Source of the DNA: Caecitellus pseudoparvulus
Lineage: Eukaryota > Protista > Bigyra: Bicosoecida
Direction of reading: 5' to 3'
DNA length: 64,000 nucleotides
Assembly: GCA_965644315.1 (NCBI GenBank)
Contig: CBFFRQ010000028.1
Coordinates: forward strand, 62,001-126,000
A program made the position numbers and the translations under genes. The notes under the pieces were generated by a model. That model saw only the letters and a program-made list of their open reading frames with translations. It was not told the origin of the DNA and searched no databases. Positions within the stretch are counted from its first letter, which is position 1. Each line of letters starts with the position of its first letter. This document shows, in pieces, positions 6,396-45,188 of the stretch.

Positions 6396-7881
6396 TCACA
6401 ACTGCTGCCACTGCACACTGGCAGCGTCGGCACCGTCCAACAATGCGTCCCCACGGGACACGCCCACACACACCCACTTGCCCGCCTCGCGCACCCAGCT
6501 GCGCACCTCGCTGCCCACACTGACCTTGGTGACGTCAGTGTCGGCAGCGCCCTGGGGCACGACCTTCCGGCTGTACGCCACGGTGGCGGAGTCAGGCCCG
6601 CTCAGCGTCACGACGGGCGGCGACACCCACACAGCGCCCGGCACGCCAGCCTCCCGCGCGGCAACATCTGCGGCCTCCCCCCGCGCCAGGCGTGCGATGA
6701 CTGCCGCATCGGCGTGTGCTGTGGCCACCTGCAGCCGAGCGTTGGCGTCAAGCACCTCCCCCTCCACGATGGGCCCTGCAATGGCCTGCGTGGCTGTGAA
6801 CACGTCCTCAATGCACGCCGTGGCGTTCACGACGAACACCTGCCCTCGGTGGGCGTAGTGCTCCACCACGGGCATGGTCTGCGTCTTGAACACCTTGAAG
6901 CGCTTGCGGATGGTGATGACGTTGTCGTCCCCGCGCCCGCTGGTGGCGGCCCGCCCCAGGATGCGCTTCTCCATCACCTCCTCGTCCGTGTCGTAGAACA
7001 GCACGCCCAGCACGTTGGTCACGGGGTCCATGTGCTTCTGCCACCCCTGCAGGTTGTCGTACGAGCGCGGGAAGCCGTCGATCAGGAACTTCGTGTTGCC
7101 GTCCGCCTTCATCGCGTTGGCCAGCAGCCGCAGCGTGATCTCCACCGGCACGATGTTGCCCTCCTTGATGTACGCGTTGATGAGCTCGCCGTCTGCACTG
7201 TCGGGGTTGGCCCGCTCTGCACGCAGCAGGTCCCCCGCGCTCAGGTGCGTGAAGCCATACTCCGCCACCAGCCGCCCGCACTGCGTGCCCTTCCCCGCGC
7301 CAGGCCCGCCCAGCACGAACAGCACCTTCGGCTGGCCATACACAGACTCCTGTGCCGCATGTCGGGGGCAGGGTGCGTGAGCCACTCAGTGGTGCCCTCG
7401 GCAGTGTGTGAGTGACGCCCTGCGCCACACAGCTGGCCCACCTCACTCACATCGCTGGCAGGCACAACACCTGTCAGGTCCAGCGGGGTGCCCTGCAAGG
7501 TGGCGGGGGAGGTGAGAGGGGGCAGGCTACGTGGCGAGGGCAGTGAATGCAAGTGCGCCACGCTGAGACCTTACAGCTGCAAGTTGTGCCGTGCTGCCGG
7601 TGCTGTCATTGGAGACGGGGCTGGCGATTACCGCAGCAGCGCCCATTGCCGCGCCTGCCACCGCCCAAGCTGGCCTGTGGAACGAGCAAGAGCAGTCCAG
7701 TGCCGGCATTCAACGCCGAAGCAGGACACAAGGGAGTAAATACCCACATGGACTCCTCCTGGGACGAGGTGAACCGCTCTCGAGTCGGCCCTGCAGCTGG
7801 CAAGGCGCGTGCCATAGTCTGGCGTGCCGCTCGTGCCGCCGAGGGCAAGGCGCCTCGAAGGCCTGCCACAGCTGCCAACAT
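6396..7881 (-). CDS. UMP-CMP kinase (adenylate kinase family) with mitochondrial-type presequence and C-terminal NTF2/CaMKII-hub-like domain
   Basis: 'VLGGPGAGKGTQC', 'HLSAGDLLRAE', 'FLIDGFPRS', 'GRGDDN'. First exon MLAAVAGLRGALPSAARAAR.. at 7881. Several short introns. Confidence 0.9.
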
Positions 7882-17494: not shown

Positions 17495-20400
17495 ATGAGT
17501 TCTTCATTGAATGCTTATGGGCGGAGCACGCTTGAAGTGGGGGAGCACCATGGCTCTGGTGGTTACAAAACCCTTGTGGACCCCGCAGAGTTCAAACCCC
17601 TGCATGCTGACGAGGTGGACCCCGACAAGTGAGCGGCGACCAAAGTGCAGTGCACCTGCACTCTTTGCTTCCGCAGCAGCTTGCAAGCCCCCCCCTCGAG
17701 CCATGAACAGCGCACACCGTGCCACGCTTCGTGCAGACCTGTCAAGCTGGGCACATGTCGCACCACAGTGTGTGCCTGTGTCTGCCTGAGCATCCTTGCG
17801 ACGCTGCTGGTGGTGGGAAGTGAGTTCTCCCCATGCGGCCCCTGGGGCGGCCACTGCCCACGCCTGCCCGTCGCCACCGCTGCCCAGGTGTCTTCCTCAT
17901 CGTGACGGCGGCTGCACACCACACGGCCCAGGAGGTCCTGGACCACGCGGAGCTGGCCTTCGTGAACAGCAACATCACCAACATCGGCGACGCCTCCTTC
18001 GTCATCGGCGTCAACTCGCAGCTGTCCCACTCCGGCTCCTTCGACGCGCGCCTGAACGGCGTCACCATCGGCCTGCACTTCCAAGGCAAGGAGATGGCCA
18101 CCTGCCTCCTGGCGCCCATCGAAGTCAAGGCGGGTGTCACCAACACCTTCCAACTGCACTCCCTGGTGGAGGTGAGCGACGTCGCGCAGTTCAACGCCTT
18201 CGGCACTGCCCTGCTGACGCAGGAGAGCGTGCCCTGGCGAGTCGTGACCAAGACTGCCTCCATTACCCTCAACGTCATCTTCGACTTTGGCGTGACAGTG
18301 GACAACCTGTCTCTGGACAAGGAGGTGCCCCTGCCCGGCGCGCAGGGCATGCTGTACCCCACCGTGCAGGACTTCTCCCTGGCCTCCTCCAACGCCACCC
18401 ATGCCAACGTCCTCACCAGCGTCAGCATCTTCAACCCCGGCGCATTCAACGTCCTGCCCTTGGGCGGCCTGGAGCTGGACATCCTGTACCAGGGCACGGT
18501 CGTGGGCAGTGTGGGGGGGGACGACGTGTACCTGCGTCGGGGGTGGAACACCATCACCTTCGCAGGCACCCTCGTGGACGCCAACCCCAACGACACCAAC
18601 ACCATCATCTCTTCCTTCCTGGGCGGCCGGGCCGTGAACCTCACCACCCGCGGGCGCCCCGCCCAGCGCACGCCCCTGCTCTTCCGCCAAGCCGTCACGG
18701 CGCTGTCCCTGGATGTCACCCTGCAGCCCTGGCAGCAACCCCTCGTCGCCGGCATGCACGTGGAAAGCATGTCCGTGGCACCTGCCCCCGGCGTGGGCGG
18801 CGGCCCCTCCTCCCTTGTCGCGTTGGACATGGTGGCCACAGTGACAGTGAACTCGCCCCTGGGGCCGCACTCGCCCCTCCTCGTGCAGACAGTGGCCATG
18901 GACGTGGAGCTGACGGGGAATGGCGCAGCCATGGGGGAACTGCGGGTGCCACCGACGGCCCCTCTGGCCCTGGCCGCCCAGGCGCCCCCACTTAGCGCCC
19001 TGGCAGGCGCTGGCTCCGGCGCCACGCCAGTGAACGTCTCCCTGGCGCTGCAAGCGACGCTGGACTTGAACACGCCCCAGCACGAGGGGGCGTTCGAAGG
19101 CTTCATGGACGCCTTCCTGCACGACGGAGCGGTGCAGGTGGGCCTGGCCAGTCTGGGCCCACGCAGCCTCTCCACCGTCATCTCCTGCGCGCTCGGCGCT
19201 GACATCGCCGTCACGGTGCCCATGCCCAACGTGACCACCACCGTGCCAGCCATGGCCGGCCTGCCGCAGGTGTCCTTCCAGTCCTTTGCGCTGACTGGCC
19301 CAGTGCCAGTGCCAGGCCACACCCCGTCCACTGGGCTGGGCGTGGTGGCGCAGGTGTCCATCACCAACCCCTCCCCAGCCACGGTGCCGTTGGGGGGCAA
19401 TGTCACCATGGCCGTGCTGGGGCAGGACCCCCTGACAGGGGCCTCGGAGCAGGTGGGGTCCGTCTCTGGGCAGGGGCTGGTGCTGCGCCCCGGTGTGAAC
19501 GTCCTGAACATGACAGGCATCCTGACCGCCCCCCGATCCCCCGCCGCCACCCGCGCCCTCACACGCATGGTGTCCCTGTACATGACGGGCAAGGCGGGGC
19601 CGGTAGCGTGCCAGGGCCTGGGCATCGACATGCCTGACGGCCAGGCTGCGCCTGCCTGGCTGCTGGCTGCCGTTCGGGACCTGCACTTGGTCACGACGCT
19701 GCCCCCCGCCTCCCACGCCCCCCTGCTCACCAACTTCAGCCTGACCACCCTGAACATGGACTTCAGCACGCAGGAACCAGGCACACCCACCACTTCGGGG
19801 TTCATGTACACCGATGTGCACCTGCCCTTCACCACTGTGCCGGTGCAGTTCCACACGGCGGACATCGTCTTCTCCATGCTGCCCAGCCCCGGCGCCGAGC
19901 CCATGGGGCAGATCATCCTGGCCAACGTCACCACGACCTACGAAGCCTTTCCCCATCCGGCGCCTGGCCAAGCCACTGGCCGCCTCACCGTGGCCCTGCC
20001 TCCCGGCACGCCCATCCACGTCCTGGACCTGCCCGCCATGCAGCAGTTCATGAAGGGGGCGTTCTTGAACGACACGGTGTTCCTGGACGGGCACCTGCAG
20101 GCCAACCAGACTGTGGGGCTGCCGCTGGGCCCCCTCACCATCCAAGGCATCACGTCCCCCGTGTCCATGCGCCTGGCAGGCATGCAGTCCCTGTCCCACC
20201 CCCCCGTGTACATGAAGTCCGCGGAAGTGGTCAAGGGCACGGAGACAGAGCTATTTTTCCTGTCCAACATCACCGTGACGAACCCCTCCCAGTTCGTGGG
20301 GTCCTTCGGGCCGGTGTCCCTGGACCTCATCTACGACGGCCAGGTTGTCGGCGTGTCCCTCCTGGACGACCTGCTCCTGCAGCCTGGACCCAACAACTTC

Positions 20401-21069
20401 ACCGCCTCCGGCATCCTGCAGCCCCCGGTCGACCCCCACACTGACCCTGCCAAGGCAGCCGCCTGCACCCAGTTCATCTCGCGGTACCTGACAGGCCAGG
20501 ACACGCCCATCTCCCTGGCCGGCACGCTGAACACGACGCCCATCCCCCTGCTGCAGCCTGCCTTTGCCGCATTTGTGGCTGCGGGCGTGCTGCCCGGGCA
20601 CCACCAGGCCCTCATCGTCAACGCCACGTTCGATGAATTGAGTGACAAGGATGACCACGGCCTGGTGGCCCAAACCATCGCGAACCCCTTCGCCGTGCCG
20701 GTGGAGATCATCGCTGCCAAGATCCGCATCTACGCCTGCGAGACACGCAGCAAGGATGCCCCCTACCACTGCGAGGGAGGCGAGGTGCCTTCCTCCTACC
20801 CCACCCAGATCGCCCTGTTCACGGACCAAGACTTCTCCGATGACCCTATTCGTGTGCCGGCCCTGGGCGTCAAGCAGAGCACCTTCCGCAAGTTCCGCGT
20901 GTACAACTTCGATAAGGAGCTGCTGCCCCTGTTGGTGGACTGGTCCACGGAGCCGTACTTTGTGCCCACCCTGGCCAACGGCACCATGACTGTTCGCGTG
21001 GAGAACTTTACACAGCAGGCCCCCTACTTCCAGTGGGAGCTGCCCCTCTACGGCAAGGCGGGGGACTGA
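17495..21069 (+). CDS. Type II membrane protein with repeated DUF3712/LEA_2-like beta-sandwich domains
   Basis: Two short 5' exons lead into a TM helix. Repeated motifs 'NP..xGxxxLDxxYxGxxVG..xLxxGxNxxxxxG' (e.g. 'IFNPGAFNVLPLGGLELDILYQGTVVG', 'TNPSQFVGSFGPVSLDLIYDGQVVG'). Many N-glycosylation sequons. Confidence 0.75.
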
Positions 21070-28210: not shown

Positions 28211-28509
28211 GGCTCCTCCTGCACTGAGCTCCCGTGCTGCAACTGCTGCCGTTGCTGCGCTTGCTCCTGTCACGTCTCCGGCTGTGCCCAACAACAAGGC
28301 AACAGCGGACACAGTCCCGGCAGCACCACAGATGCCCACAGGCCATCAACACCCGGGGGAATCAAACAGATGGATTTTACTCCCGCGTGGGTCGCACTAT
28401 CTGTGTCATGGCAGTGACGACGCCTGAGGGGGGGTGGACACCCACGCGCTCGTCCCAGGAAAATGGGACTTGCACAGAACCTGTGCAATACTGCCGGGCA
28501 CGTCAAAAG

Positions 28510-28609
28510 CAGGGATCTCAGGGGGGTCCGGGAAGCTATTCCCGCACCTTTTTTGCCAAGATACCGGACACCCCAACCTGAGGGGGGGTGCCCCCCTTGT
28601 GGACCCCCC
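28510..28609 (+). repeat. Structured repeat copy A (begins CAGGGATCTCA; probable transposon end)
   Basis: ~100 bp direct repeat of 36104-36204, about ten differences by eye. Contains hairpin CGGGAA-gcta-TTCCCG, a T6 run and CCGGACAC. Confidence 0.92.
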
Positions 28610-28835
28610 CCCGTCAGCCTCCCGCGACACCACCCCCGCCCTAACACCAATACCCGCAGCCCCCAAAGCTCGCAACACCCGACACCACTGAGATTGACCT
28701 CCCCCCCGGCATTTCTATCATTTCTGGGCGGGAAGCGGGTGCTGGGACTGACTTGCTGGTGGCAGGCAGGCTTGCAAGCAAGGCTCTGCGAGCCTTTGGG
28801 GAGCCTGCCGTCCCACTCTCTGGGCACCTGACGAA

Positions 28836-29170
28836 GTGAGGGGTGCAACACCATGGCCCCAAATTAACCCAACCGCACCAGCTTCAACGGCATCTCAGCA
28901 CAGCACCCCTGGCCTGTACTGCATGGCCTGCCCATCACTGTTCCCGACGGGCGCTGGCGAATTTACTCTTCGACAGCCCCACCTCAAGATCCCAGTCACG
29001 GAGGCGGATGCGATCCCCCACCTGCTTTTCGTTGCCCATCGCAACACACACGGTCGCTGGGTATACCCAGCCCAACAGCACCCTTTTCTTGCCTTGCTCG
29101 CCTTTGACAACGTGCGAAGGTATGCGGCGTTTGAGGCTGGCCCGCACGACAGAGAATCCGGTGTTTTGTT
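28836..29170 (+). pseudogene. Helitron/Helentron RepHel N-terminal fragment
   Basis: 'WPQINP..STPGLYCMACPSLFPTGAGEF..VT..HLL..HPF..AFDNVRR' resembles the conserved '(A)FPTLFPxG' region upstream of the Helitron Rep domain. No Rep HUH/Y2 or PIF1 helicase motifs follow. Confidence 0.7.
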
Positions 29171-31217
29171 TTTGCCCACGCAACGAACTTGCATCGCCTG
29201 TGAAGCCACCCACAGCGCCCATCCGACACCCCACCCAATAGACTTACCCCACTGCCGGCCACCATTCACGTAATGCACTCGTTCTGGGCTGGTGGGATAC
29301 CTTTGCCTGGCAAATTGGATCGAGTGCGGGTATCAATGTCTCTTTGGCGGAGGGATGTGCTCCAGTTGCCTCTTCACGCGAAAACTATAGGCACTGGGAA
29401 AGGAGTCTTGATGTTTGTGATGCAATGTTTAACGGCCTGGTCGCGCTCGCCACCATATGGTGGGTGCAGGACGACAAGGTGTGTGGCAGCCAAGCTCAGC
29501 GCCAGCCTTCACATTTTGCTGGCAAGGGCACACGGCGCGAAATTCACAGTCATTGCCCATCGCGAGCAGGTCCGCAGAACTTCGGGTGCCTGGCCACATG
29601 TTGTGGATATCATGCGTCACTCCCCTGTGGCATTTCTCTGAGATCCGTCGGGACAGACGCCCCTTGCAAGCTCCTGGCACCCTCCACTTCTTTCCTTTGG
29701 AGTGACTCGCATGAGCCGAGGAGGGTGGCCACTGCACGCTGGGCAACGCCTTCAAACAGTGTACTCCAAGCATGCCTGGACCTTGGCAGGGCTGGGCTGG
29801 TGCGCTACGTGCACAGTCCTGCCACTGTGCACGGTCACGCTGACTTCGATGCGCAGCCTCAGTGCGCGGATGATCCAGTTTGAAAGGTCTCACAACTTGG
29901 CAAGGTGTGGCCGTCTGGGCTCCAGGGCATCAGCTTGCTGGGGCATGGGCCAGTGCAGGGCGGGGAGGGACGTTGCTGCTCTGGCCTTGTGCTGGATTTG
30001 GCTGGGAGGCCAGGTGGTTGGACACCCAAGTTGACGGGCTGCTTGTAGATGGGGTGACGTGTACTGCTTGGACAGTGAGCCAACAAGAGCAGCTGGTGGC
30101 TCTTGCGCAGTTCGTGGGTCTGGGGCTGCCTGGGTCAGCTGTCATGGCGAGGCTGCCGCTTCAGGATGCTGAGGAGAAAGCACGTGGCCAGCTGTGTCAG
30201 TTTGGGGCACTCCATGAACAGCCGCTGTAGGTCGCATTGACTGGGCGAGGTCGGCAAGCTGGGCTGTGGCACCACACATGCTTGGCAGCTACTGGCCTGT
30301 GGGGCCATCAAAAGGATAGGGCCTGACGTGGAATGGGCATTGTGCGGACAGATACGCTGTGTGGTATGGTATTGAAGAGAAGCCGCTTGGTGGTCTGCAG
30401 TGTTCGGAGCATGACTGGGGCAGTGGCTGACCTCCGTGCAAGCGTGCTGGTTCGCAGCCTGGCCCGCACTGCACGAGCTGCACAGCTCAGCCGCACTTTC
30501 GACAGCATGTCCCCATGCAGCTTGTGCGGTGGACTGCTGTTGGACTCGGTGTGTTGCGGGGTGTAGCGCGGGATCCGCCAATCATGGTGGGCGAGTCCGT
30601 CCACATCATGGCCACGGCAGCTTGCTCGCTGGAAGCTTGCAGGCCTGTTGCTCGCTGTGTCGGTGTGCGAGAGGTCCACATGTATGAGAGTGTGCACCTC
30701 ATGTTGAATGCCGCGTGGGGGGCTTCAGCGTGGTTTGGCGCTTGACCGTTTGAATGCTGAGATTGACTTACTTCACCTTCATCCGCGCAGTGTGCAGGGG
30801 GTGACTGGAGCGAAGGACGGGGCAGTGGTTGCTGGAATCTCATGGATCACGTTGTTCGACTAGTCTGCTACTCCAGGCGCCGCGATTCTCCCTTCGAGGT
30901 TTGGTGGTGCATTCTTGGCGTCTGCACTTTGAGACGCATTTTTACATCATTCGCGCACATCGAATAGCGCCCATTCATGTGCCAACTGGCTTGCTAGGGC
31001 TGTGTAACAATGGTAAGCAAGAAAACAAACAACACACATGTTCCCACAATTCAAATAGCACAGCCTGTGTACTGCACGCTCTGGGCATCGTGTTGAACCT
31101 TGCCTCACCTCCGCTCTGTGCAGCTCTGCGCTGCTCAGAGTCGGCACACTTCCGCACCAGGGCGACCTCGAGGACTGAGCGAGCACCGTCGGAACCTGCA
31201 CACCTCGACGGCGTAGC

Positions 31218-34200
31218 ATGAGTTTGAAGGCTGTCTCGGCTTTGTCACGTGGCCTGGGGGTGTCATTTCGGCCCTTGTTGGCGTTGCGCAGTGTTGGGGC
31301 GGAATTTGCTGCTGCTCCAGTGCTTTGGGCTCCACCGCGCGCACCCCAGGCGCACAAGGCACCCAGCCTGGTGCGGCATGCTTCATCTGTGGCTGGTGCT
31401 GCAGTGGAAGGACCTCCAGTGGCCAGCGATGTGCTTCCGAGCACGTCATGGTGGGGACAGCTTCCAGAGAAGAAGAGGGAGAAGTTGCTTGTGGCTTTGT
31501 CTGAGCTTGAAGAAGCAGATGGAAGGCTTCCACTAGAATTGGCACTTGCAGCCCTCGAGAAGCTGGAGGTGCGTGACCTTGCGCGCGGGCCGTGCTTGGG
31601 CGAGTCACCCCGCCCTTCACTCGGCTTCATATTCTTCACAGACGCCTCCTGACGCTCTCCTGTTCCAAACCTTCGCTTCATGCGGATTCATACGTCAACT
31701 TGAGTTCGGGCTTCGGACAGAGAAGAATGCCATGGACGTGCAGACGCGACTCCTTTCGTCTCTGCTGTCCGTTCCGATCAATGCTTCACTGAGGCTGGTC
31801 AAGGGCGAGAACTACCTCTCTGACCTGGGCGTCGAGCTGCAGAACTCCAGCTCAAAGGCTTGGGTCATAGATCTGCCAGAGATGCTGGCCAAAGCAGGGG
31901 GTCATTACACGAACCTGGTCGAAGCAGACAACGCTCTGAACGAAGAACTCAGACGACGCCGAGAGGCACTGGAAGCCGAGCGAGTGGAGAGGCAAAAGGC
32001 ACTGAAAGCTGAGCGAGTGGAGAGGCAAAAGGCACTGAAAGCTGAGCGAGCGAAGAGGCAAAAGTTAATTGCAGACACAAAGAGTGCCATGCAAGTATGT
32101 GAGGTGAGTAGGGCGTTTGACTTGTCCGTTGTCTGACATCGCTGCACTTCGGCTTCTTCCTTCGCTTTGCACAGGCCGAGGCGGGGGCTGAGTTGTGGAG
32201 TATCCTTAAAGGCTGTGGGGTATTGGGCACCATTCGCGTGGCCAATGTGACTTGGAATCCAGAGGGTGCACTCAGTGCAGTCAAGCAGCTCAGCAAACTG
32301 TCTGTCGCTGACCTGGCAGGAGAAGATGCAGCAGACTTGTGCTCAAGGGTGCTTCCGAAGGATTTTCCACGTGGCCTGGCGAGGAGAATCCAAAAACAGC
32401 TTGAGAAGGCTGTCCAGTCTGCGTGGTTCAACGAAGCAGTGCGAGAGCACGAGGTCGTGAATTTGGGGCTCCCGCTTCGCGCACTCTTGATTGCGAAACG
32501 AGGCGATAAGGCCAAAGCACGAGCTGTGCTCAAGACCGCGGGGGTCACGGATGCAAGCTACATCGACAGGCTCCTCAATATTGAACAGAAGAAGCTTGAC
32601 GCCTTGGCCGACAACTTTGGCTGGCTGCTCGATGTTGAAGCTGCCTTCAAACGCCAAGATGCGTGGTACTGGGACGTCGTGCATGCCTTTCGCCCCGAGT
32701 CACCCTTGACTGCAGAGCGACTTGAGAAAGACAAAGAGTTCAAGGATAGCGTTGACCCAGTGAAGGACATCAAGTGGAGCACTGGATGCTACCCTGTCTT
32801 TGTCAACGGCGAGTTCAAAGCAGCCGTGCTGCGAATTCCCATCTGGGAATCGCTTCCTTTCCTGCTCGAAGACGAGAAGACTGACTTGACCAGCCTCCCG
32901 CTGGACGAGGTGACATTGCCAGGCTTGAGGCCCGGCGCACACGGCTTCCTTCACTTGCCAGAGTCTGAAGTGCCACAAGAGGAGCTGAAGTTTACGACGT
33001 ATGTTCTGACTCGCTCACGGGCAAGGCTGCTCGTGAAGGCTGCATACAACTGCCTTGGAGCCCAGCTTGGTACCATGACAACTGCCGTGCACGGGACGGG
33101 GAAGTCTGCTTCTCTGCGGGCTCTTGCAGCGATGATCGGCATCGGGGCTGGGGGCGACGTCATGTACTTGTCAGAGTCGGAAGTGCTCGCTCCAAACTCT
33201 GACAAGTTTGACGAACTCCTGAACCGACTTCTTCAGGGGGGATTCTCGTTCTCATGTGGCAGGAGCCTGCGGACTCCCGTGCTGTGCCAGCAGATTGCTG
33301 AGATTGGCATGCAGGGTACCGATGCACACCTAGCCTTCCTCCGAGCTTTTGTATCACGCTCGGTGTTCAACGCAGGGGACTTCAAGTCAAGCCAAAAGGG
33401 GGGGGTGCCAAGTGCTTTCATCATTGACGAAGCCAACCGCCTGCAGGAACAGCTGATGAAGAAGCATACGGAGCATGTAAGGTGGTGGGAGTTGCTGAAG
33501 CGCTTGATGAGCTGGAAGTCAAATGCGCGCAAGGTGGTCGCCTTTTCCCCTGACTTCCACGCTGCAGCACTCCGTCAGACGAACCAGACAGTGAATAAGG
33601 CGTTTGACACGTCCTCTTCAGCTGACAAAGAGCACCCCTTCTTCGAGATGCAGCGGCTGGACCCGAGCTTGGCGCTGAAGCTCATGCTGGGGCCGGCCGA
33701 GTATGAGGTGCCTAAGCGGCTCACGGATGCAGACGAGGGAGCACTGGCTGTTGGCAGTGGGGCGGGTAAAGACACTTCGCTCCAGCTTCCGCCCCTTGCC
33801 TTGGCTGTTGTGAAAGACGACAAGCAACGGGAGCTTCTTCGGAAACTGATCCATTCGTTGGGCGGGGTTCCTCGGAGTTTGCGTCGGGTTGTCAAAATTG
33901 CAGGCGACCAGGAGAAGGATCGTAGAGAGATCGAGGATCGCAGTAAGAATAAAGCTGAAATCGCCAGTTTGTTGAAAAAACGTGGATTGGCGGCGAACCC
34001 AGAAGAGTGGTTCTTCAACGTGCTCCATGACGCTTGGAAGGAAAGCATGCAAAGCATGCAGATTCGCTGCTTCGACCATTTCTCCGACAAGTCGCTCAAG
34101 GAGCTTGCGGGCAACGCGGGTGGACTGTCGGTGTTTTGGAATCACTCCTTGGCAGCGTCCTCGATCCTCTCGAGGATCAACCCGAAAGAGCTTGCGTTGG

Positions 34201-35519
34201 AGGACAATGTGGAGTTTTCGTCGCACACAGCGAGGCACGCCTACATGCGAGCTCTGTTCCAGAAGCACACAGAAGCTGCGAAGAACCGCCACGACCCGGC
34301 GACGCAAGAGGCGTGGGAGGCATTGCTGTCTGGGGCGACCGTCTTTGGCACAGGGCAACTGTTTGAGGACTCGGTGACGACCCTGTTGGAGCTGGGGCTG
34401 TTCGGGTCGGAGTACACGCCACTGTCGAATGATGCTGGCAAGCCCCCGACTCAGATGCTTCGGACGTACTCCTTTGGGCTGGACAAGGACTCGTTCCCGG
34501 CGGAAAGGGTCAAGCATGAGGTGACAGGGGCCGGCTTGTCTCCAATGGACGTGCAGATTGTGCAGAACCTGGAGCCTGGGAACACGCATGTGGTGCGCAC
34601 TCCCCACGTCTTTCCAGCAGTTGACTTCGTTGTATTCAGACGGCCGAAGGAGTCGGAGCAGGGGCAGCTGGAGGTGGCCTTCATCGAGACCACCATTTCT
34701 TCCCTGTCCGTGCACGGTTACGGGAGAACCCTGGAGAAGCTGAAGTTCGCAGGCGTCCCCCCGAATGACTTGAAGGATTTACAGCTTCCGAACACGCTGA
34801 AAGACATTGCCAACCTTGCGTGCAATCTGAACTACCACACAGAATTGGACGGGAACAGGGTGAAGTTCACACAAGCAGCTGGGAAGCGAGGTCAGCAGAA
34901 GACAACGATGGCGAACTCCATTTTGTGGATGTTTGGGGTCCCCATTGACCTGAATTGCACAATTAAGTCAATTCCATCCACTGGCCACTTCACCAAGATG
35001 GCCATGGATCCGACGATGCTGAGTGAGGAGCAGCGTCGGCGAGTTGGGGCGGCCACGGCAGAGTTGCTTCGACTGGCGACAACTCAAGCTGCCAGAGATC
35101 CAGTGCTCTCAGCAGCTATTTTCGAGGAAAGTGCGTCGCCCACAGACCTTGGGCAAGAGGTCACCGACCACGTCAGTGAGGCATCCGAGGCAGCGTCCGA
35201 CATGCCTGGCGTTGAGGCTGAGGCCATGGAAGTGCAGCCGCACGCTGATGCACAGGTTGGGAGCAGCACGGAGCCTCCTCTCATGACACTAATCCGATCT
35301 GAAGATGATGTGAAGGTCTACTTCATCTACTGCACGTCCAAGGGTCAGGACAAAGGAGAGGAGCACCATGACTTGAAGCATGTTGAGATCCCTGGCTTCT
35401 TCGGAGTGTTCAAGGACGGGTTCCTGCCCCCCGAGATGAAGTCCCTGGAATCCCAGCTTTCAGTCAACATTGAAGAGTCATCGCCCTTGCCTAGGAGGCA
35501 GTTGCCGAAGTCAAAATAA
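31218..35519 (+). CDS. Crinkler/RHS (CR)-type protein: presequence-like N-terminus, coiled coil, P-loop NTPase, PD-(D/E)xK-like nuclease
   Basis: Exons 31218-31568, 31642-32094 and 32175-35519 joined by two phase-0 GT-AG introns give ~1382 aa in frame. Walker A 'AVHGTGKS', Walker B 'FIIDEA', 'VVAFSPD', 'LGGVPRSL'. REase-like 'GQLFED..PHVFPAVDFVVF..FIETTIS...H'. Confidence 0.8.
31964..32064 (+). repeat. 33-bp coding tandem repeat x3 (KALKAERVERQ coiled coil)
   Basis: Units start at 31964, 31997 and 32030 and are near identical. Confidence 0.93.
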
Positions 35520-36103
35520 CTCCGCTGTTGCCACATTCGTCCTTGCGGGGGGCTGACTGTGCCTTGTTGACAGCCTTTGCAGGCTGGAGTCGGACTTTGT
35601 TTCCTCAGAGTGGTTGGCACGGGGATCTTGGGTTTCTGATGTGAGAGTTCAGTGAGTGAAGAATGTAGACATAGCAGCGTGAGAGGCGGGAAAGTGTGGT
35701 GTGTCTGGAGTGTGCGTGCCGGTGTTGGAACTACGATGCATTGCCAGCCTCTTGCTTTATTCAACGCTCCGTCCGTGCTTTCTCCATTTCTGTTCGACCC
35801 AGCCCAAGAGTGGCGTGGCTCAGCATGATCCAGGCGGCAGGCGTGTGTTGCGGGCTCGCCGCGCTGGAGTAGCATTGGCCTGCTAGCTAACGCAGAGTCA
35901 GAGCCGGGCGGGCGTTTAAGACAGCTGGAAAGTAACCCCCACCCCGACCATCTCCTTTCGGTTCGGATCACCAGCGTCGTGGGTTGTAGGGAACTCGGCG
36001 TTTCGAAGGTGAAGGATGCGTCTTTGCACCCGGTTTTTGAGCTCCCTCACCTCAAGGGACACACACTCATATTCATCGCCATGACAAACTCTGGGCACAG
36101 AGC

Positions 36104-36204
36104 CAGGGATCTCAGGGGTGTCCGGGAAGCTATTTCCGCACCTTTTTTGCTGAGATGCCGGACACCCAAACCATAGGGGGGGGTGCCCCTCCTGTGGACC
36201 CCCC
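36104..36204 (+). repeat. Structured repeat copy B (begins CAGGGATCTCA)
   Basis: Direct copy of 28510-28609 with internal inverted pair GGGTGTCCGG/CCGGACACCC. Abuts the hAT transposase remnant. Confidence 0.92.
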
Positions 36205-36213
36205 TCGCCGTCC

Positions 36214-37500
36214 GTGTCCATGGCGCTGGGAGTCACTCATCCTCCGTCTGCTTGCCAGCGCTGGTTCCCGAGCAAGTTCAAGTGCCACCTTGCCATCAAT
36301 GCACCAAATAACATCAATGCTGTGTACTCTAGGCTTGATATTTACGCCTCTAGGCTCCGAAACTCGACCAGATTCGTTTGCAACGGCGGTGCTGTCATGA
36401 GGGGTTTCGGTCACGTTCCACCTTCGCTGCATGATGGCGGAGGGCGCGGCAGTGTCTGAAAAAGCTATGACTGTCACTAAGCTCGCTCCAGTTCTTCATT
36501 TCTCACCAGGGTGCAAGGTCTTGCCCACTGTGCCTGCCTCTTGCGAGTGCTTTGCAGCCAGGAGGCATGCCGTCACTTCTGCGATACCAAGACCATGGAC
36601 CAGAGGAAGGCTGCAGCTCAGCACTGGAAGGCTGTGTGCCCAGATCTGCGCGTTGGCGACTTCCTTCTGCTTACAATGCTTGGGCTGAAGGGGTGGAAGG
36701 CAAAAGGGAATAGTCTCGCGGATTTCCAGCGGCCAGATTTGCGCACTGGAAAACCTATCCTGTGGTCCGAGACCCTGAAGTGCTTTGTTGAAGCACGAGA
36801 GGAAACACTTCTCAGGAAGCACCTGCCTGCCATGCATGGCATGACCAAGCAAGAAGTTCTTGCACTGGCCAAGACGTTCAGTGTTGAGAAGCCCATGAAA
36901 GCTCAGCCTGGCAGTGACGCGCACAGAGCCCTGCTAGGTGATGCAAGGAACCTCGTACATGAGGCACAGGTGCTTCTGCAGACAGCGCCTGTCTCGGCGG
37001 AGATGATCGCACGTGATAGCATGTCTCACTTGCGAATGGCTCAAAAGCTTCTGGTGCAGAGCTTCACTTCGATTGGGCTGTCGCCGCAACAGCCCAGGTC
37101 ATGTCCCCTGAGAACCACATGCTGATGACCGTATGGGGTTCAGAAGCCACTTCAAACACGACGCACTGCCACATTCGGCGAGCAGCTGGCCACATTGCTG
37201 CTGATTTGTGCATGGAACTGGCAGAGGAGCCTTGTGGTTGACTGGCGTGACTTCGTTGCGGTCTGTGGGAGTCAACGAGTGCTTGCATCCAGTGCGGTCT
37301 GCAGCGACAGCACAAACCTAGCCGCGTTCTGCACGCATCTGGAGGCATGGAGGAGGGGGGAACGAGCTGTTGGGCCCCTCCTTTCCCATGTCGCGCGGGC
37401 TGTGTGCTCAACACCGGCCACAAGTGCAAGCGCTGAGCGTTTCTTCTCCGTGCTGACCTTCTGGGATGCCTGTGGTAAGAGGACCAGGGCACACACTACT
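36214..37500 (+). pseudogene. Decayed hAT-family transposase (C-terminal half)
   Basis: hAT dimerisation motif 'W....GPLLSHVARAVCSTPATSASAERFFS'. Weaker upstream echoes of TRWNS ('QRWFPS') and ATLLDPRFK ('LTMLGLKGWK') lie in different frames, separated by stops and frameshifts. Confidence 0.8.
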
Positions 37501-38460
37501 GCTTGGCAGCGAACTCTTGCTGCTTTCCTTCCTGCAGCTGGTGGCTCAGTGCGGCAAGGACTGGCTGCCCCCCCCCCCTTCACAGTGAGCAGCTCATCAG
37601 TCCGCCCCGGGCGCCAGGAGCAGGGCCAGGCACTCGGCACGAGCCTGGATGGGCTAGCTGTGCGGCTTGTTTCCTCTCGAGCTGCTCCTGCTGCGCGTGC
37701 ATGCTCCACTGCTGGGGCTTCATCTGCCCCTTCACGCCGGGCTGTTGGTGGCAAGAAGAGGGGGTCGTGCAGGAGGAGCACCTCCAAGCGGTCCCAAGAA
37801 GGCGCTAAGGTCCGGTGGAGGGAAGCGGGGAACGCTTCTTGATGTGTGGGGAAGCTGGCCAGGTGCTGAAGTGAGTTTTCCAATGCATAGTTGAGTTTGG
37901 GGGTAATTTATTGCGGGCTTTGCTTTCGGGCCCGAGTCACTGCTTGTGGAGACAAGTTTCAAGGATGATCCAAGGGAGTGGATCCGGGAGCTCAATGAGG
38001 GCGCCTCCGCCTGCGTGATACTCCTTCCCTTTTGCACGATTAGGGCAAAGTTTCACTGCAAAGGGTGTCTGCATTCTTTTTTCATCCCGCATTGCTTTTG
38101 CTCCTTGTGCAGGAGGGCGTACGGGGAGCTCTGGGCATCCAGGCAAGCGACACTACACAGACCACAGATCACCACGCCAATCGACACAGTGCCGTACAAG
38201 CAATATCGCGCACATTAAGCACTATTAGGGCTTGAGACCGTGTTGAGTAGGACAAGATTACCTGCCCAGATGCAAAACTGCAGCAGTATCCATTCAAAAA
38301 GTTGTAAAGAACACGAAGTTGCTTGTACGCTTTGCCGTGGAGTCGTTTATCAATTTGAAGCTCTTTCAGAGGCACACAGATTCACAGAGGACGACACAAG
38401 AAGATACATTCTACCAATGAAGCGATGCTATGGACTACAGGGTATCGTTCATTGAGGTCT

Positions 38461-38575
38461 TTGAGGGGGGGGATACGGGAACTGGCCGAAGGCCAGTTCC
38501 CGGACACCCGGGCGTTTGGCTGAGGGGGGACTTCGGCCTCTTGCCGGACACGGGGTGGGACGGGGCCGGACACAT
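38461..38575. repeat. Structured repeat copy C: perfect 12-bp hairpin plus three CCGGACAC motifs at the island's right border
   Basis: CGGGAACTGGCC-gaa-GGCCAGTTCCCG at 38476-38502. G-runs and TGAGGGGGG are shared with copy A. Confidence 0.8.
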
Positions 38576-38721: not shown

Positions 38722-41700
38722 ATGGCACGTGGCGCATTGGTGCTGGCCATGGTGGCCCTGGCGGCCACCTGCTCGTCTGGCTTCATCCTGGGTGTGGACT
38801 TCGGCAGCGAGTTCATGAAAGTGGCCCTGGTGCAGAACGGCAAGCCCTTCGAGGTGCGTGGCCAGGCGCCAAGGCGTGCTACACCGCCACGTGTGCGGGG
38901 GTGCAAAATCCGCACCTGCGCCAGAGCAAGTGTCCTGCGCGGCGCACACGCCTCCCCACTCGCCCTGCCTCGCGCAGGTCATCACCAATATTCATAGTAA
39001 GCGCAAGACGCCCACCGTGATTGGTTTCTACAAGGGCGAGCGCTTGTTCGGGGCCGATGCAGAGCAGATTTCCACGCGCAAGCCCAAGTTCGTGCTGCGC
39101 AACCCACAAACCCTGCTGGGCCGCAACATGTCCGACCCCATCGTCCAGGCCCATGCCGCGCAGCCCTTCGTGGGCTACGACATCGTGCCCTCCGCCCACG
39201 GCGGCGTGGCACTGCGCCTGGCCCCACACGAGGACAGCTTCCCGGAGGGACGCACCTTCACTGTAGAGGAGCTGACTGGCATGCTGCTGGCGTACGCCAA
39301 GCACTTCGCCAGCATCTTCGCGGGCGGGGCCCCCATCTCCGACGCAATCATCACGGTGCCGGCCTTCTTCACGCAGCAGCACCGCCTGGCCATGCTGGAC
39401 GCCGCCGCCCTGGCGGGCCTGCGTGTGCTGGCGCTGCTGGATGAGAACACGGCCGCCGGCGTGCAGTACGGCATCGACAAGGTGCACACCAACACCACCA
39501 ACCTGCTCATGTTCAACTCCGGCTCCGCCCGCACCCAGGCGACCGTCATCCAGTACACCGCCTACAAGGCCAAGGGCTTCGGCAAGGGCAAGGTGGGGCA
39601 GGGGGAGGTGCTGGGCGCCTGCTGGGAGGACGGCGTGGGGGGGGCCTCTGTCACCCAGGCCCTCCTGAACCTGCTGGCCGACGCTGTGAACGCCAAGCAC
39701 AGCAAGGCGCTGGAGGGCGCCGACATCCGCACCCTGGCCCGCCCCATCTCCAAGCTCCTCAAGGCCGCCAAGAAGGCCAAGGAGGTGTTGTCTGCCAACA
39801 CCGAGTACACCGTGTACGTGGAGTCCCTCACGCCCAACATCGACTTCTCCCACAAGGTCCGCCGCGCAGACCTGGAGCAGGCCGCCGCGCCGTTCCTGGC
39901 AGGTGCCATGAAGCCCATCGCCTGCGCCCTGGAGGCCGCCAACCTGACCCTGGCCGACATCCACGCCGTGGAGCTCATCGGCGGCAGCGTCCGCGTGCCA
40001 GCCATGCAGGCCCTGCTGAAGGAGACCTTCGCGCCCGCCAACTTGACCCTGGGCATGCACATGAACGGCGACGAGGCCATGGCGCTGGGCGCCGCCTTCG
40101 TGGCCGCCAACCGCTCCACCTCTTTCCGCGTGCGGCAGGTGGGCATGGTGTCCACGACGCCCTTCTCCGTCGGCGTGGAGCTCACGGACCTGCCGGGTGC
40201 GGAGGTGGACACGCCCCTGTCCAAGCGCAGCACGCTGTTCAAGGCCGGCAACAAGCTGGGGAACCTGAAGAAGCTGTCCCTCAAGCACAGCACGGACATG
40301 GTGGCGTCCCTCGCCTACACCAGTGACGCCCCCCTGCCCGCCTCTGCCCAGACATTCCTGGCCGCGTACAACATCACGGGCCTGGCAGCTGCTGTGGCCA
40401 ACCACTCCACCCTGGACGCTCCCAAGGTGTCCCTCACCTTCCAGCTGGACCACAACGGCATCGTGCGCGTGACCAAGGCTGAGGCGGTGTTTGAGGAGTG
40501 GGTGGAGCCCGCGGCAACCACGCCGGAGGCTGCCAAGGAGGCGGAGAGCAGCCCCTCTCCCACTGCGGAGCCAGCCAGCGAGGACAAGGACAGCGCGGCT
40601 GAGGACAGCACAGCAGAAGACTCGCCAGACGCGGAGGGCACTGCCAAGGACGAGAAGGAGGACGCGGACAAGGGCGCCGATGCGGCGGATGAGAACACGG
40701 CCACAGCCACACCCGAGCCCACTGCCATTCCCCAGCCCAAGCGCAAGCTCATCCGAGTGCCCCTCACCGTCACCTTGGCGGACACCCCCGATTTCACGCG
40801 GGCAATGAACAGCAGCGAGATGGAGGCGTCTGCCGCCGTCCTGGCAGCGCTGCAGGCCATTGACGACGCCAAAGCCAAGCGCGAAGCTGCCAAGTCGTCC
40901 CTGGAGTCGTACATCTACGCGTCTCGGGGACAAATGGGGGAGCTGTACGAGGAGGTGGAAGCGGTCAGCACGGAAGAGCAGCGGGAGGCCATCTCCACAG
41001 CGCTGGAAGTGACCGAGGACTGGCTGTACGACGAGGGCGACAACACCAGCCTGGACAAGTACCTGAGCAAGGACGCCGAGCTCAAGGCACTGGTGCAGCC
41101 GGTGCTGGAGCGTGTCAAGGAGGCAGCCGAGCGCCCTGCCGCCATCAAGTCAGCTCGCAAGTTCATCGTCAGCACAGAGGCATCCCTGGCGGACTGGAAC
41201 GAGACGCGACCATGGGTAAGTCACCGCACCGCACCGCACCCTCACACGCCCTGGCACGGCTAGCTGGGCGGCGACGGATGGCAGCTCGCCTGCCACTTGA
41301 CGTCGCCGTCATGGCCCTGCCACACAGTACTGGCGCCCCCCTCCTGCGTTCCCTCACTGCCCCTGCATGGGGGAACACTTGTTTCTTACTGCGCCGGAAG
41401 TGGCCTTCGGGCCGCGACCAGCAGAGGGTGATGGCACCCAATCATGACGGGGTAACCCGTTGGAGAAGGTAACAACTGGGAGGGGGGCGCCACGCGTCGT
41501 GGACATTCCGGCGCCGTGCAAGGCATCACGCGCGTCTCACAGACCTCCCGCACATTCCACCCCCCCCGCCCCCCTGCGCAGTTGACGGACTACCAGCTGC
41601 AGCGTGCCGCAGATGCGCTCAAGGTCTTCACGGAGTGGCTGGAGGAGAAGGTGGCTGCCCAGGAGGCCAAGGAGGCGCACGAGGAGCCTGCGTTCACTGT

Positions 41701-42049
41701 GGCCCAGCTCAAGGGCCAGCGCCAGCCGGTTAAGCTGCAGATGAACATGCTGAAGCGTGTGCCCAAGCCGACACCCACACCCAGCCCCACTCCAGCTGCC
41801 GAGGCGGCAGAGGAGGCAAGCGCCAAGGCAGACACCGAGGCAAGTGGCGCAGATGCCGGTGAGGCCGACGCTGCCGCCGGGGAGAGCAAAGAGACTGCTG
41901 AGCCAGATGCCACCAGCGAAGGGGAGGCGGCGCCCAAGGATGGCGCGGAAGCAGCGCCCGAGGGTGAGGAGGACGCGGCACCCAAGAGCGAAGAGGAGGA
42001 CGCGGCAAAGGCAGACGCAGACTCTGAGGCGGGCAAGGAGGACTTGTAG
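38722..42049 (+). CDS. HYOU1: ER Hsp70-family nucleotide exchange factor GRP170/Lhs1
   Basis: Signal peptide, 'ILGVDFGSEFMKVAL', 'SKRKTPTVIGF', 'ITVPAFF', 'ELIGGSVRVP', 'NGDEAMALGA', 'LESYIY', 'EDWLYDEG'. Ends in KEDL*. Introns near 38854-38977 and 41216-41581. Confidence 0.93.
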
Positions 42050-42091
42050 GCACACCTGTAGCAATGCATTGCTGCAAGCCCCCGGCGCGCC

Positions 42092-42978
42092 TCAGATCTT
42101 CAGGGTGGTGCCTGCTTTGACAGACTTGAAGTACCTCCAGAAAAAGTCAGCGTACAGCAAGGTCTGGACGGCGCCACAGAACCAGGGCAGCCATGCTGAG
42201 TAGTGGGGCTCTGTCCACGCGCGGTAGATCCAGTTCAAAATGTACAGCGCCCTGTGGCAAGCAGTGTGGGGTAAGGACTGCGGCAGGGTTCCAGCACAGT
42301 CAGGCGCTTCGCGGATTCACACCTGTACGCTCCCAGCGTCGCGATGTAGTGGCTGGTAATGTTCTCCACGTCCTTGTCTCGGGTCAGCAGCACCAGCTGT
42401 GGGAAAATAGCAATGGCCTCCAAGAAGATGGAGAAAGACCAGCAGTACTGCGACGACGGGGCGGGTGAAGTGGGACGGCGTTACAGGCGCGTTTCATGCC
42501 TCCTGCCCCGAGCGCGCACACGCACCTCCCTGAAGATGAGCCAGACATTGAAGCCCGTCCAGTTGATGTCGTTGATAAAGAGCGCAAGCACTGCACAAGG
42601 CAGCACTGCAAACTTCCAGTGCAAGAAGGTGTCCCTCTCGAAAAGGTACATGCTCTTGAAGGGCTCCCGAAAACGGATGAGGTACACCAGCCCAGCAGAG
42701 GCAGCGATATAGAAGATCTTGAAGAGCGTGTTGTACAGAGACGTCTTGTTCGTGAACAGGTCCAAGTATCGGGTCAGGAACACGATCAAGTACAGCTCCT
42801 GGGTCTTCAGAGAGATTCCTGTGGGGAGCGGGGGAGCGCCAAGTGGCACAGGCGCCTGAATTTTCAGCCGCCCTCGCTCACCGTTGGCGTTCTTCGTCTT
42901 CATCAGCCTCCAGCCAAGGATGAAAAAGCTGGCCAGATGGGAAAAGTCACCCAGGATGCGGAAGCTATTCCAGTGCAT
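42092..42978 (-). CDS. ERD2: ER lumen protein-retaining (KDEL) receptor
   Basis: '[12 protein letters not shown]', '[22 protein letters not shown]', '[23 protein letters not shown]', '[10 protein letters not shown]'. Four exons. Confidence 0.95.
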
Positions 42979-43375
42979 GGCTGACAGGTGCTTGGGCAGT
43001 GTGGCGCTCAGGTTCCCTTCCCTGGTGCTGGGCGTCTGGACAAACCCGCTCAAGGGCTCTCCAGTCCTGCAAAGGACACAGCAAACAAGCTGCTCCCCAG
43101 TTAAGAGCTGGTTCGGCGGCAGCTGTGCGTGTGAAAATTGTGCCAAGTATGGAGTATGCCAGAAAGGATGACATATGTGTGCCTGGAGGTACTGTAGTTT
43201 GATCTTTCATCAGCCGATCATGCGCGCTCATTTCTGGTGAGTGCACAAATCACCTCAAGTGAAACATGAGCGTGCAGGTCTTCTACGTTTGAGTTGGCTG
43301 CACGGCCCTTCTTCACTGCTGTACTTGCAAGCTGCTTTCCTGGTGCTTGGCAGGCTGCGTAAGCGAGCTGGGGCC

Positions 43376-45188
43376 ATGCGCCTGACCTCGCCCGCACAAG
43401 TTGCTCCTGCTGCAGAGCAGAAGGATGGCAAGGCGGGAGACCAGGATGAGCAAGGCCCGCCCACCCAACCCACTGCCCCTGGCAAGGGCAAGGCAGGCTC
43501 GCTGAAGCGCTCCCGGACGATGGCTGTGCTGGAGCTTGCGCGCAGCATCAACGTTGCGAACATCCCGGCCAGCGCCATGGAAGAGTACAAAGTCCTCTTC
43601 GACACCATGGACGATGACAAAAGTGGAACACTGGAGCCTCACGAGTTGCGGATGCAGTTTCACCGAGTGGGCATTGACATTGACTCGGCTGACTTACGCT
43701 CCCTCCTCCGCGCCTTGGACGTTGACGGGAGCGGAGCCATTGACGCAGATGGTGGGTGCTCACAGTCGCAATGGGAGGATTTCCATGGGCGACACGCATG
43801 TCCAACGTATCACCCGCGTTCCCGTCTCACCAGCTGCTGTCGCTGCCTTGCCCGCGTTTCCCCTTGCGTTTCACTGTGCACCCGGTGCCCCATCCCTCGA
43901 CTGCAGAGTTTGCAGCGTTGCTCCACGCTTTCGTAGTCCAGAAGCGGGATGTTGGTGATGTTTCTATGTATGGAGACTTCAGCGATGACCCGCTTCTCAT
44001 GCGAGGTGTGTGCTGCGCCGGTTGGCGTGGCTCGCTCACCCTGGAAGCCTCCTCGCCCCGTCCCACCTTGCAGAGCGCGCCGTGCACACTTCGTCCTGGC
44101 TTTGGCTGCAACACCACACTTGGAACCTTATGGATAGACCTGGCTCCTCTATCCCCGCAACTGCAGTGTCGGTGGTCATCATGGTGCTCATTGCGGTGTC
44201 ATCCACCGCGTTTGTGCTGGAGACCGACCCGGGTCTGCGCACAGGGCACACCGCCGTCTTCTCGGCCATTGACACCGTCAGCGTGGCAGTCTTCACTGCT
44301 GAATATGTCTTGCGGCTGCTGTCGTGTCCGGACAAGCGTGCTTTCCTGCTGTCGGGCATGAACACAGTGGACTTGCTGGCCATCGTGCCATTCTACCTTG
44401 AGCTGGCCCTGGCCGGCAGCAGCCTGAAAGGCTCCCAAGTCTTCCGGGTCATCCGCCTCGTGCGTGTCTTTCGAGTAGTGAAAGTGTCTCGGTACCTCAC
44501 GTGGCTGAGGGTGTTTGGCTCCACGCTCTCGTCCAGTGGAGCGCCCCTGGGCATGATCATGTTCATTGCCCTCATCGCCACAGTCGTCTTCTCCTCAGCC
44601 CTGTACTACGCGGAGAGGGATTCCCCGCCCACAGAGAAAGATTACGCAACTGTGCCCTTCTCTTCCATCCCCATGGCAGCTTGGTGGTGTATTATTTCAA
44701 TGACGACGGTGGGCTTCGGGGACATGGTGCCCACGACCGCAGTGGGGCAGCTGCTGGGTGTGGTGACTGCCTTTGCTGGCATCCTCATCTTAGCCATTCC
44801 AATCTCTGTGATTGCGGCAAACTTTCACCAAGAGTACCAAATGTCCATTGTCACCAAGGTCCTGAACAAGGCGCACAACAAGGTGCAGCACGGCGAGGGA
44901 GGTGGTGACAGCCACGACAGCAAGACCCAGCACTGGAGCACGGACTTCCTGGTGTCAGCCCTCTCCCTCGCGAGGTCCAACCGCTCCCGCCTCATGACCA
45001 ACCTGAAAGCCATCGAGCGCGTGAATCGCGAAGACTGCTTGGAGGAAGTGCACGCCCTGGCAGACTTTGTACACAAGGCAGTGGAGGAGGACTTGCACAC
45101 CCCTCCCGAGCACTGCGTCGTGCCTCTTCCGAGCCATCGCCACACAGGGGACGGCCAGGCATCAGCAAAGGTGACCCCATTGAGCTGA
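43376..45188 (+). CDS. Voltage-gated K+ channel (6TM, Kv-like) with N-terminal EF-hand pair
   Basis: EF loops 'DDDKSGTLEPHE' and 'DVDGSGAIDAD(E)'. S3 'NTVDLLAIVPFYL', S4 'FRVIRLVRVFRVVKVSRY', pore 'WWCIISMTTVGFGDMVP', S6 'AIPISVIAANF'. Confidence 0.9.

Follow-up and report, generated by a model that had tools for sequence, protein, structure and literature searches.

A predicted CR-type NTPase-nuclease gene with a presequence-like N-terminus beside hAT remnants in Caecitellus pseudoparvulus

The Crinkler/RHS (CR) effectors that join a nucleoside triphosphatase (NTPase) to a restriction endonuclease-like (REase-like) domain have a variable N-terminus, a P-loop NTPase, a helical domain and the REase-like domain, and belong to many-member families that lie near transposons and occur in free-living eukaryotes (Zhang et al. 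2016, via PMC5289972 and PMC11342252; here and below, PMC numbers refer to the accessible parts of these papers). Published accounts place CR proteins in the nucleus or have them delivered into a host. A gene with the same predicted layout occupies positions 31218–35519 of the forward strand in a 64,000-nucleotide stretch (the window) of the bicosoecid Caecitellus pseudoparvulus (assembly GCA_965644315.1, contig CBFFRQ010000028.1, positions 62,001 to 126,000). The present protein departs from the described effectors in having no detected LxLFLAK/ubiquitin-like header and a presequence-like N-terminus, and in a nuclease with large insertions and ExT..H instead of ExK. Its exons are open, its Walker and nuclease-like residues are conserved, its family is divergent and it sits beside hAT debris. 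The most likely reading, to which we give a probability of about 0.42, is that a CR-type STAND NTPase with a restriction-fold nuclease is imported into the cell's own mitochondrion, where it would cut nucleic acid under nucleotide control in some conflict role; all steps beyond the gene anatomy are inferred.

The nearest organellar precedent is the katablepharid mitochondrial HpaII restriction-modification system, in which a restriction-fold nuclease is suggested to target the mitochondrial DNA of a protist and to bias its inheritance (PMC8099122). That system is encoded in the mitochondrion together with a methyltransferase partner, whereas the present gene is nuclear-encoded, intron-bearing and NTPase-fused, with no partner seen. 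Tribolium Medea1 (CR-NTPase8 + CR-REase7; PMC11342252) is likewise a CR NTPase+REase protein, and a selfish killer in a free-living eukaryote; the REase7 His follows its Glu by three residues, compared with nine here, and the same source describes no organellar targeting of Medea1. Fish AACRNL, a Crinkler-like gene of free-living eukaryotes that spreads with neighbouring hAT elements, resembles the present locus in its surroundings but is an ADP-ribosyltransferase toxin with paired terminal inverted repeats, whereas the present gene encodes a predicted nuclease and has same-orientation ends only (PMC12957317). No mitochondrion-targeted CR protein appeared in the open-access literature listings searched; the main text of a Cafeteria spatial-proteomics preprint mentions neither nuclease nor Crinkler.

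The gene is unbroken and likely has three exons. Exon 1 (31218–31568, 117 residues) comprises the presequence-like residues 1–56, a linker and a short helical stretch with a KKREK motif. Exon 2 (31642–32103, 154 residues) encodes a small header domain followed by three 11-residue coiled-coil repeats (31964–32062). Exon 3 (32175–35519, 1114 residues plus stop) encodes a helical domain, the NTPase module, a second helical domain, the REase-like nuclease with its insertions, an acidic disordered stretch and a basic tail. As read from the sequence, each exon is divisible by three and lacks an internal stop, and the two predicted phase-0 introns (31569–31641, 73 nucleotides; 32104–32174, 71 nucleotides) have GT..AG borders and pyrimidine tracts. 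The intron 1 donor (GAG/GTGCGT) is identical to the first-intron donor of the neighbouring Hsp70-family gene, and the context of the start at 31218, the sole in-frame ATG of exon 1, is similar to that of the same neighbour.

The reading made earlier from the sequence alone (the sequence-only reading) had joined three open reading frames through two phase-0 introns into a protein of ~1380 residues. The open exons and intron borders agree with that model, but its donor at 32095 (exon 2 31642–32094, 151 residues; intron 2 of 80 nucleotides) gives way to a second in-frame donor at 32104 (GTGAGT), so that the protein becomes 1385 residues long. In the homologue P0008, an NCBI gene model, an exon 2-like stretch ends in QVCK (QVCE in the present gene) directly before the residue aligned to the start of exon 3; exon 2 and P0008 residues 1–73 are 26% identical over 73 residues (pairwise E 2e-4). 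We favour the 32104 donor because QVCK abuts the exon 3 start and because an RNA-library contig match begins at 32173, consistent with an exon whose last two letters are AG.

Parts of the locus were found in 20 of 24 listed runs (12 studies), and marine or seawater metagenomes are numerous among them. Four RNA runs (X17–X20), whose contigs are silent on level, strand and start, were compared with it. Run X17 yielded 32 contigs on the locus, 3 at ≥99% identity and 21 at <95%, and therefore reports relatives or other strains as well; X18–X20 contain under a tenth of the locus words, and their cover is confined to stretches of exon 3 and of the 3' flank. Positions 30000–30935 have no cover in any of the four. 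Two contigs end their match exactly at the acceptor AG (31640, 32173), with 5 and 18 unmatched letters, as expected of spliced RNA, and contigs ~91% alike cover 31086–31229 and 31278–31353 in the exon 1 region. One contig that is 91% alike over the 5' region and the start codon diverges upstream of 31086, which suggests a related copy elsewhere that shares the exon 1 start.

Among the listed substitutions, which are the best-supported ones, synonymous changes in the predicted frame make up 10 of 19 in exon 2 (p 0.015–0.034) and, for exon 3, 7 of 11 and 18 of 40, against an expected 24–30% (p 0.002–0.034). By this excess exons 2 and 3 are protein-coding, and homology with P0008 links the two. 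The part of exon 2 that precedes its first Met also looks coding, with 4 of 9 substitutions synonymous, and therefore calls for a further exon upstream; exon 1 would be tied to the gene only through its splice signals and this need for an upstream start.

The proposal of a CR-type NTPase and nuclease is supported by family-wide motif conservation, by STAND/ORC-type fold matches and by neighbours in the Atlas (0.91–0.96) that include a Crinkler cluster at 0.91, a score given without alignment or E-value. The motifs at 33084, 33417, 33861, 34353, 34611, 34680 and 34707 lie where the sequence-only reading had placed them. A word-index search returned two relatives (45% and 34%) and a profile search 34 at E up to 0.001; our alignment holds 32 proteins with exon 3, namely 31 of the 34 profile matches (three short fragments were left out) and P0002. 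Among members of at least 600 residues covering each site (query included), the Walker A Lys is conserved in 19/20, the Walker B Asp in 19/21 and Glu in 20/21, and the nuclease-like E, D, E, T and H in 18/20, 21/21, 18/21, 18/21 and 19/21, respectively. P0002, P0006 and P0021 are long and open yet have lost Walker or nuclease residues (several in P0002); such inactive copies could serve as decoys or antidotes.

The module at 32607–33914 (Walker A Lys at 33102, Walker B Asp-Glu at 33426–33431) is a P-loop NTPase of STAND/CDC6-ORC type, and its predicted structure matches STAND/ORC-type folds. The closest matches are mitoribosome chains, which from entry titles and lengths we take to be mS29/DAP3, so that the predicted fold is also of DAP3 type. 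Residues 581–720 are helical in the model; archaeal ATPase matches reach residue 692, and no match names a helix-turn-helix. The REase-like core (34353–34724) carries Glu 34365, Asp 34623, Glu-x-Thr 34686 and His 34713, and is modelled as a helix, three strands, a helix and later strands, the last predicted near 35310–35414, with E..D..ExT..H on the expected helix and strands. The C-terminal region is predicted to be a restriction-fold nuclease, a prediction on which fold searches are uninformative either way, their lists being filled by NTPase matches with the nuclease region absent among the matches listed. A single-sequence fold model (pLDDT 38) was unusable.

Pfam returned weak AAA-type matches for the family, nothing stronger, and none to the C-terminal REase-like domain. 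A PDB sequence search with the protein gave no match and the family profile hit generic P-loops only; PADLOC and PHROGs gave nothing for the protein, and no related loci were found in metagenome or viral contigs. Shorter relatives, or longer proteins sharing exon 2, were also not found, which is weak evidence. Neither exon 1, exon 2 nor the start of exon 3 matched Crinkler in Pfam at E up to 1–10, and the ubiquitin-like LxLFLAK header (Pfam PF20147) was not detected; exon 2 may still have a ubiquitin-like fold of an unrelated kind. Such a fold, suspected by eye, found no support in Pfam, the PDB or the Atlas, where nothing for exon 2 scored above 0.86. We predict that the protein works like a CR NTPase+REase protein, though the missing header match sets it apart from Crinklers in the narrow sense. 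The sole named family members are labelled Symbiodinium sp. KB8, whose assembly contains mavirus-like genes that are known elsewhere from Cafeteria (PMC10120064); these relatives may therefore belong to a heterotrophic flagellate that was co-assembled.

The sequence-only reading had likened the N-terminus to a mitochondrial targeting peptide. The candidate presequence (31218–31385) ends near an RHA/SS cleavage-like site. The first 60 residues contain one acidic residue, 5 Arg and 2 Lys (net +6). Residues 1–28 are free of acidic side chains, the first 30 have a net charge of +3, and the 18-residue hydrophobic moment is 0.53, compared with 0.37 and 0.51 in the two likely presequences of the window, those of a hydrolase and a kinase. 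Scored by a home-made scheme, the N-terminus is basic, acid-poor and amphipathic with an Arg before the cleavage site. Simulated DNA passed the loose, middle and strict forms of this test at 7–11%, 1–2% and 0.3–0.6%, and 1 of 1044 internal windows of exon 3 passed. The resemblance is above chance yet not rare, and functional import of the peptide, judged from its sequence, has about even odds. As the variable header of a CR protein the peptide would be only a part, since ~350 further residues (a helical stretch, a small predicted alpha/beta domain, the coiled coil and a helical domain) stand before the NTPase module.

In the favoured mechanism both introns would be spliced out, residues 1–56 would be cleaved on mitochondrial import (near residue 56), and the NTPase would bind nucleotide, oligomerise and so turn the nuclease on; being mS29/DAP3-like, it probably binds nucleic acid. 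The target would be mitochondrial DNA or RNA, and the conflict role might be suicide defence against viruses or that of a toxin-type selfish element. On this view the CR protein would be ordinary but for its presequence exon, a gain specific to the lineage. A more specific version, in which a nucleus-encoded, transposon-associated STAND ATPase-nuclease with a captured presequence exon cuts the cell's own mitochondrial DNA (for suicide defence, selfish addiction or biased organelle inheritance), we consider unlikely.

Several observations weigh against mitochondrial import, and many of them would suit an ordinary nuclear or cytosolic CR protein (a selfish element, a transposon relic or a defence against invading DNA) whose N-terminus is a chance product of recently added GC-rich sequence or whose exon 1 is unused. 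The presequence scoring has modest specificity and its criteria were fixed after the peptide had been seen. The loose test is passed by 38 (15%) of the 258 frames in the window that begin with ATG, a set that includes real starts and the candidate; 9 frames pass the middle test and 6 the strict test. Shuffling the first 30 residues gives equal amphipathicity in 6%. Codons 1–60 have a non-coding-like GC pattern (0.68/0.62/0.57), unlike the remaining gene; motifs resembling nuclear localisation signals occur in every one of the three exons, the C-terminal basic tail included; and a single pairwise test saw no homologue of exon 1. None of 17 called homologue starts passes the presequence test, although the calls are unreliable, many of them probably lying downstream of an intron. 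No contig in the four RNA runs bridges intron 1 or intron 2, and one 89%-alike contig is unspliced through intron 2. No antidote or modification partner is seen in the window. Those Crinkler proteins (CRNs) that have been characterised reside in the nucleus (PMC5289972, PMC6131194), CR proteins, found also among free-living eukaryotes, have nuclear DNA as their target (PMC5289972), and CR-like genes next to hAT ends have been described (PMC12957317). Set against the nuclear or cytosolic alternative are the rarity of the strict combination of charge, amphipathicity and cleavage-like site (in 6 of the 258 frames and 0.3–0.6% of simulated frames), the single exon 1 ATG with a start context like that of neighbouring genes, and the upstream exon that exon 2 needs; we hold this alternative to be nearly as likely as mitochondrial import with a conflict role.

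The structural nearness to mitoribosome chains, the two mitochondrial members of the same NTPase clade as precedent, and an intact gene seen in RNA libraries would fit a domesticated housekeeping factor for mitochondrial DNA or RNA, recruited like Dap3/mS29 and RNA12. The mS29 match, however, lies within 1 Z unit of archaeal STAND ATPases (2qen 11.5) at 9–16% identity, and since kinship with Dap3 is general to CR-ATPases it carries no information on where the present protein resides; both points also detract from mitochondrial import. Pfam DAP3 does not match the protein and is not among the 25 of 41 families listed, and a profile of 33 family members found no mitoribosome chain at E up to 1. 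mS29/DAP3 is a stand-alone ribosomal subunit of ~400–480 residues with a conserved single-copy gene, whereas the present family is fast-evolving and lies in a transposon island; by its sequence, which at ~1385 residues has no match to mS29/DAP3 (or RNA12/Yme2) and is fused to a nuclease-like domain, the protein is not mS29. Domestication is made improbable by the low-GC, transposon-rich surroundings, by a GC content at third codon positions of 0.67 compared with 0.88 in the neighbouring Hsp70-family gene, and by the many divergent relatives, some without catalytic residues (P0002). Least probable of all, to our minds, is an effector delivered into another cell (prey, competitor or host) whose peptide aims at an organelle of that cell. 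The CRNs of oomycetes and fungi, whose headers vary, are effectors that reach other cells by delivery (PMC5289972), but the present protein has no signal-peptide-like hydrophobic stretch (maximum 12-residue hydropathy 1.36, compared with 2.56 in the signal peptide of the neighbouring Hsp70-family protein), it matches no Crinkler header in Pfam, and the cell's own mitochondria would capture a protein with a working presequence.

If the protein is imported, it would add an organellar target to the CR class, suggest a testable way for the nucleus to govern what becomes of mitochondrial DNA, and link mobile CR ATPases to mitoribosomal Dap3. In the more specific version, in which the cell's own mitochondrial DNA is cut, the protein, with a nuclease still joined to its mS29/DAP3-like NTPase, would serve as a living model for mobile ATPase-nucleases entering mitochondria and giving rise to Dap3 and RNA12. 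If the peptide is non-functional, what is left is a CR subfamily that is new and unannotated but of modest interest.

The gene lies in a hAT-rich island in which GC content is 0.57 (28500–38450), compared with 0.67–0.68 outside. Two same-orientation hAT-like ends flank it on the forward strand, copies of a 101-bp direct repeat that are 89% identical (copy A, 28510–28609; copy B, 36104–36204). Copy B directly precedes a hAT transposase remnant broken by in-frame stops (36205–37842, forward strand; Pfam Dimer_Tnp_hAT E 6e-6, above the curated cut-off), and we call the repeat an end because of its sharp shared 5' boundary and the position of copy B. A search with the end returned no match. Between 27000 and 45000 the search for an inverted partner turned up nothing beyond a 10–12 nucleotide match inside the coding sequence, and neither a matching right end nor the 8-bp target-site duplication of a hAT cargo was seen, so the gene is only a candidate hAT cargo and, unlike in the earlier description, not demonstrably transposon-borne. 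The description of the surroundings as an island of pseudogenes holds for the low GC and the stop-broken transposase on the right; the left 2.5 kb (28610–31150) is low in GC with short broken frames and has no Pfam match in any of six frames. A decayed paralogue suspected there was ruled out, as nothing in that flank is related to the present family.

Just upstream of the Hsp70-family gene, 38465–38575 contains three CCGGACAC motifs and a hairpin and is possibly a third, decayed hAT-like end. The motif CCGGACAC also occurs in both hAT-like ends, and 6 of its 7 matches in the window fall in these three places, although chance alone would account for the total. Another dip in GC content (0.58 at 42000–44000) accompanies short acidic or coiled-coil-like frames and an endoplasmic reticulum lumen receptor exon at 41456–43206. 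Elsewhere in the window, an adenylate/UMP-CMP kinase (6396–7881, minus strand) has a presequence-like start and a C-terminal extension past the kinase domain, and a 1078-residue frame at 17833–21069 carries repeated DUF3712/LEA_2 domains, a family described mainly from fungi.
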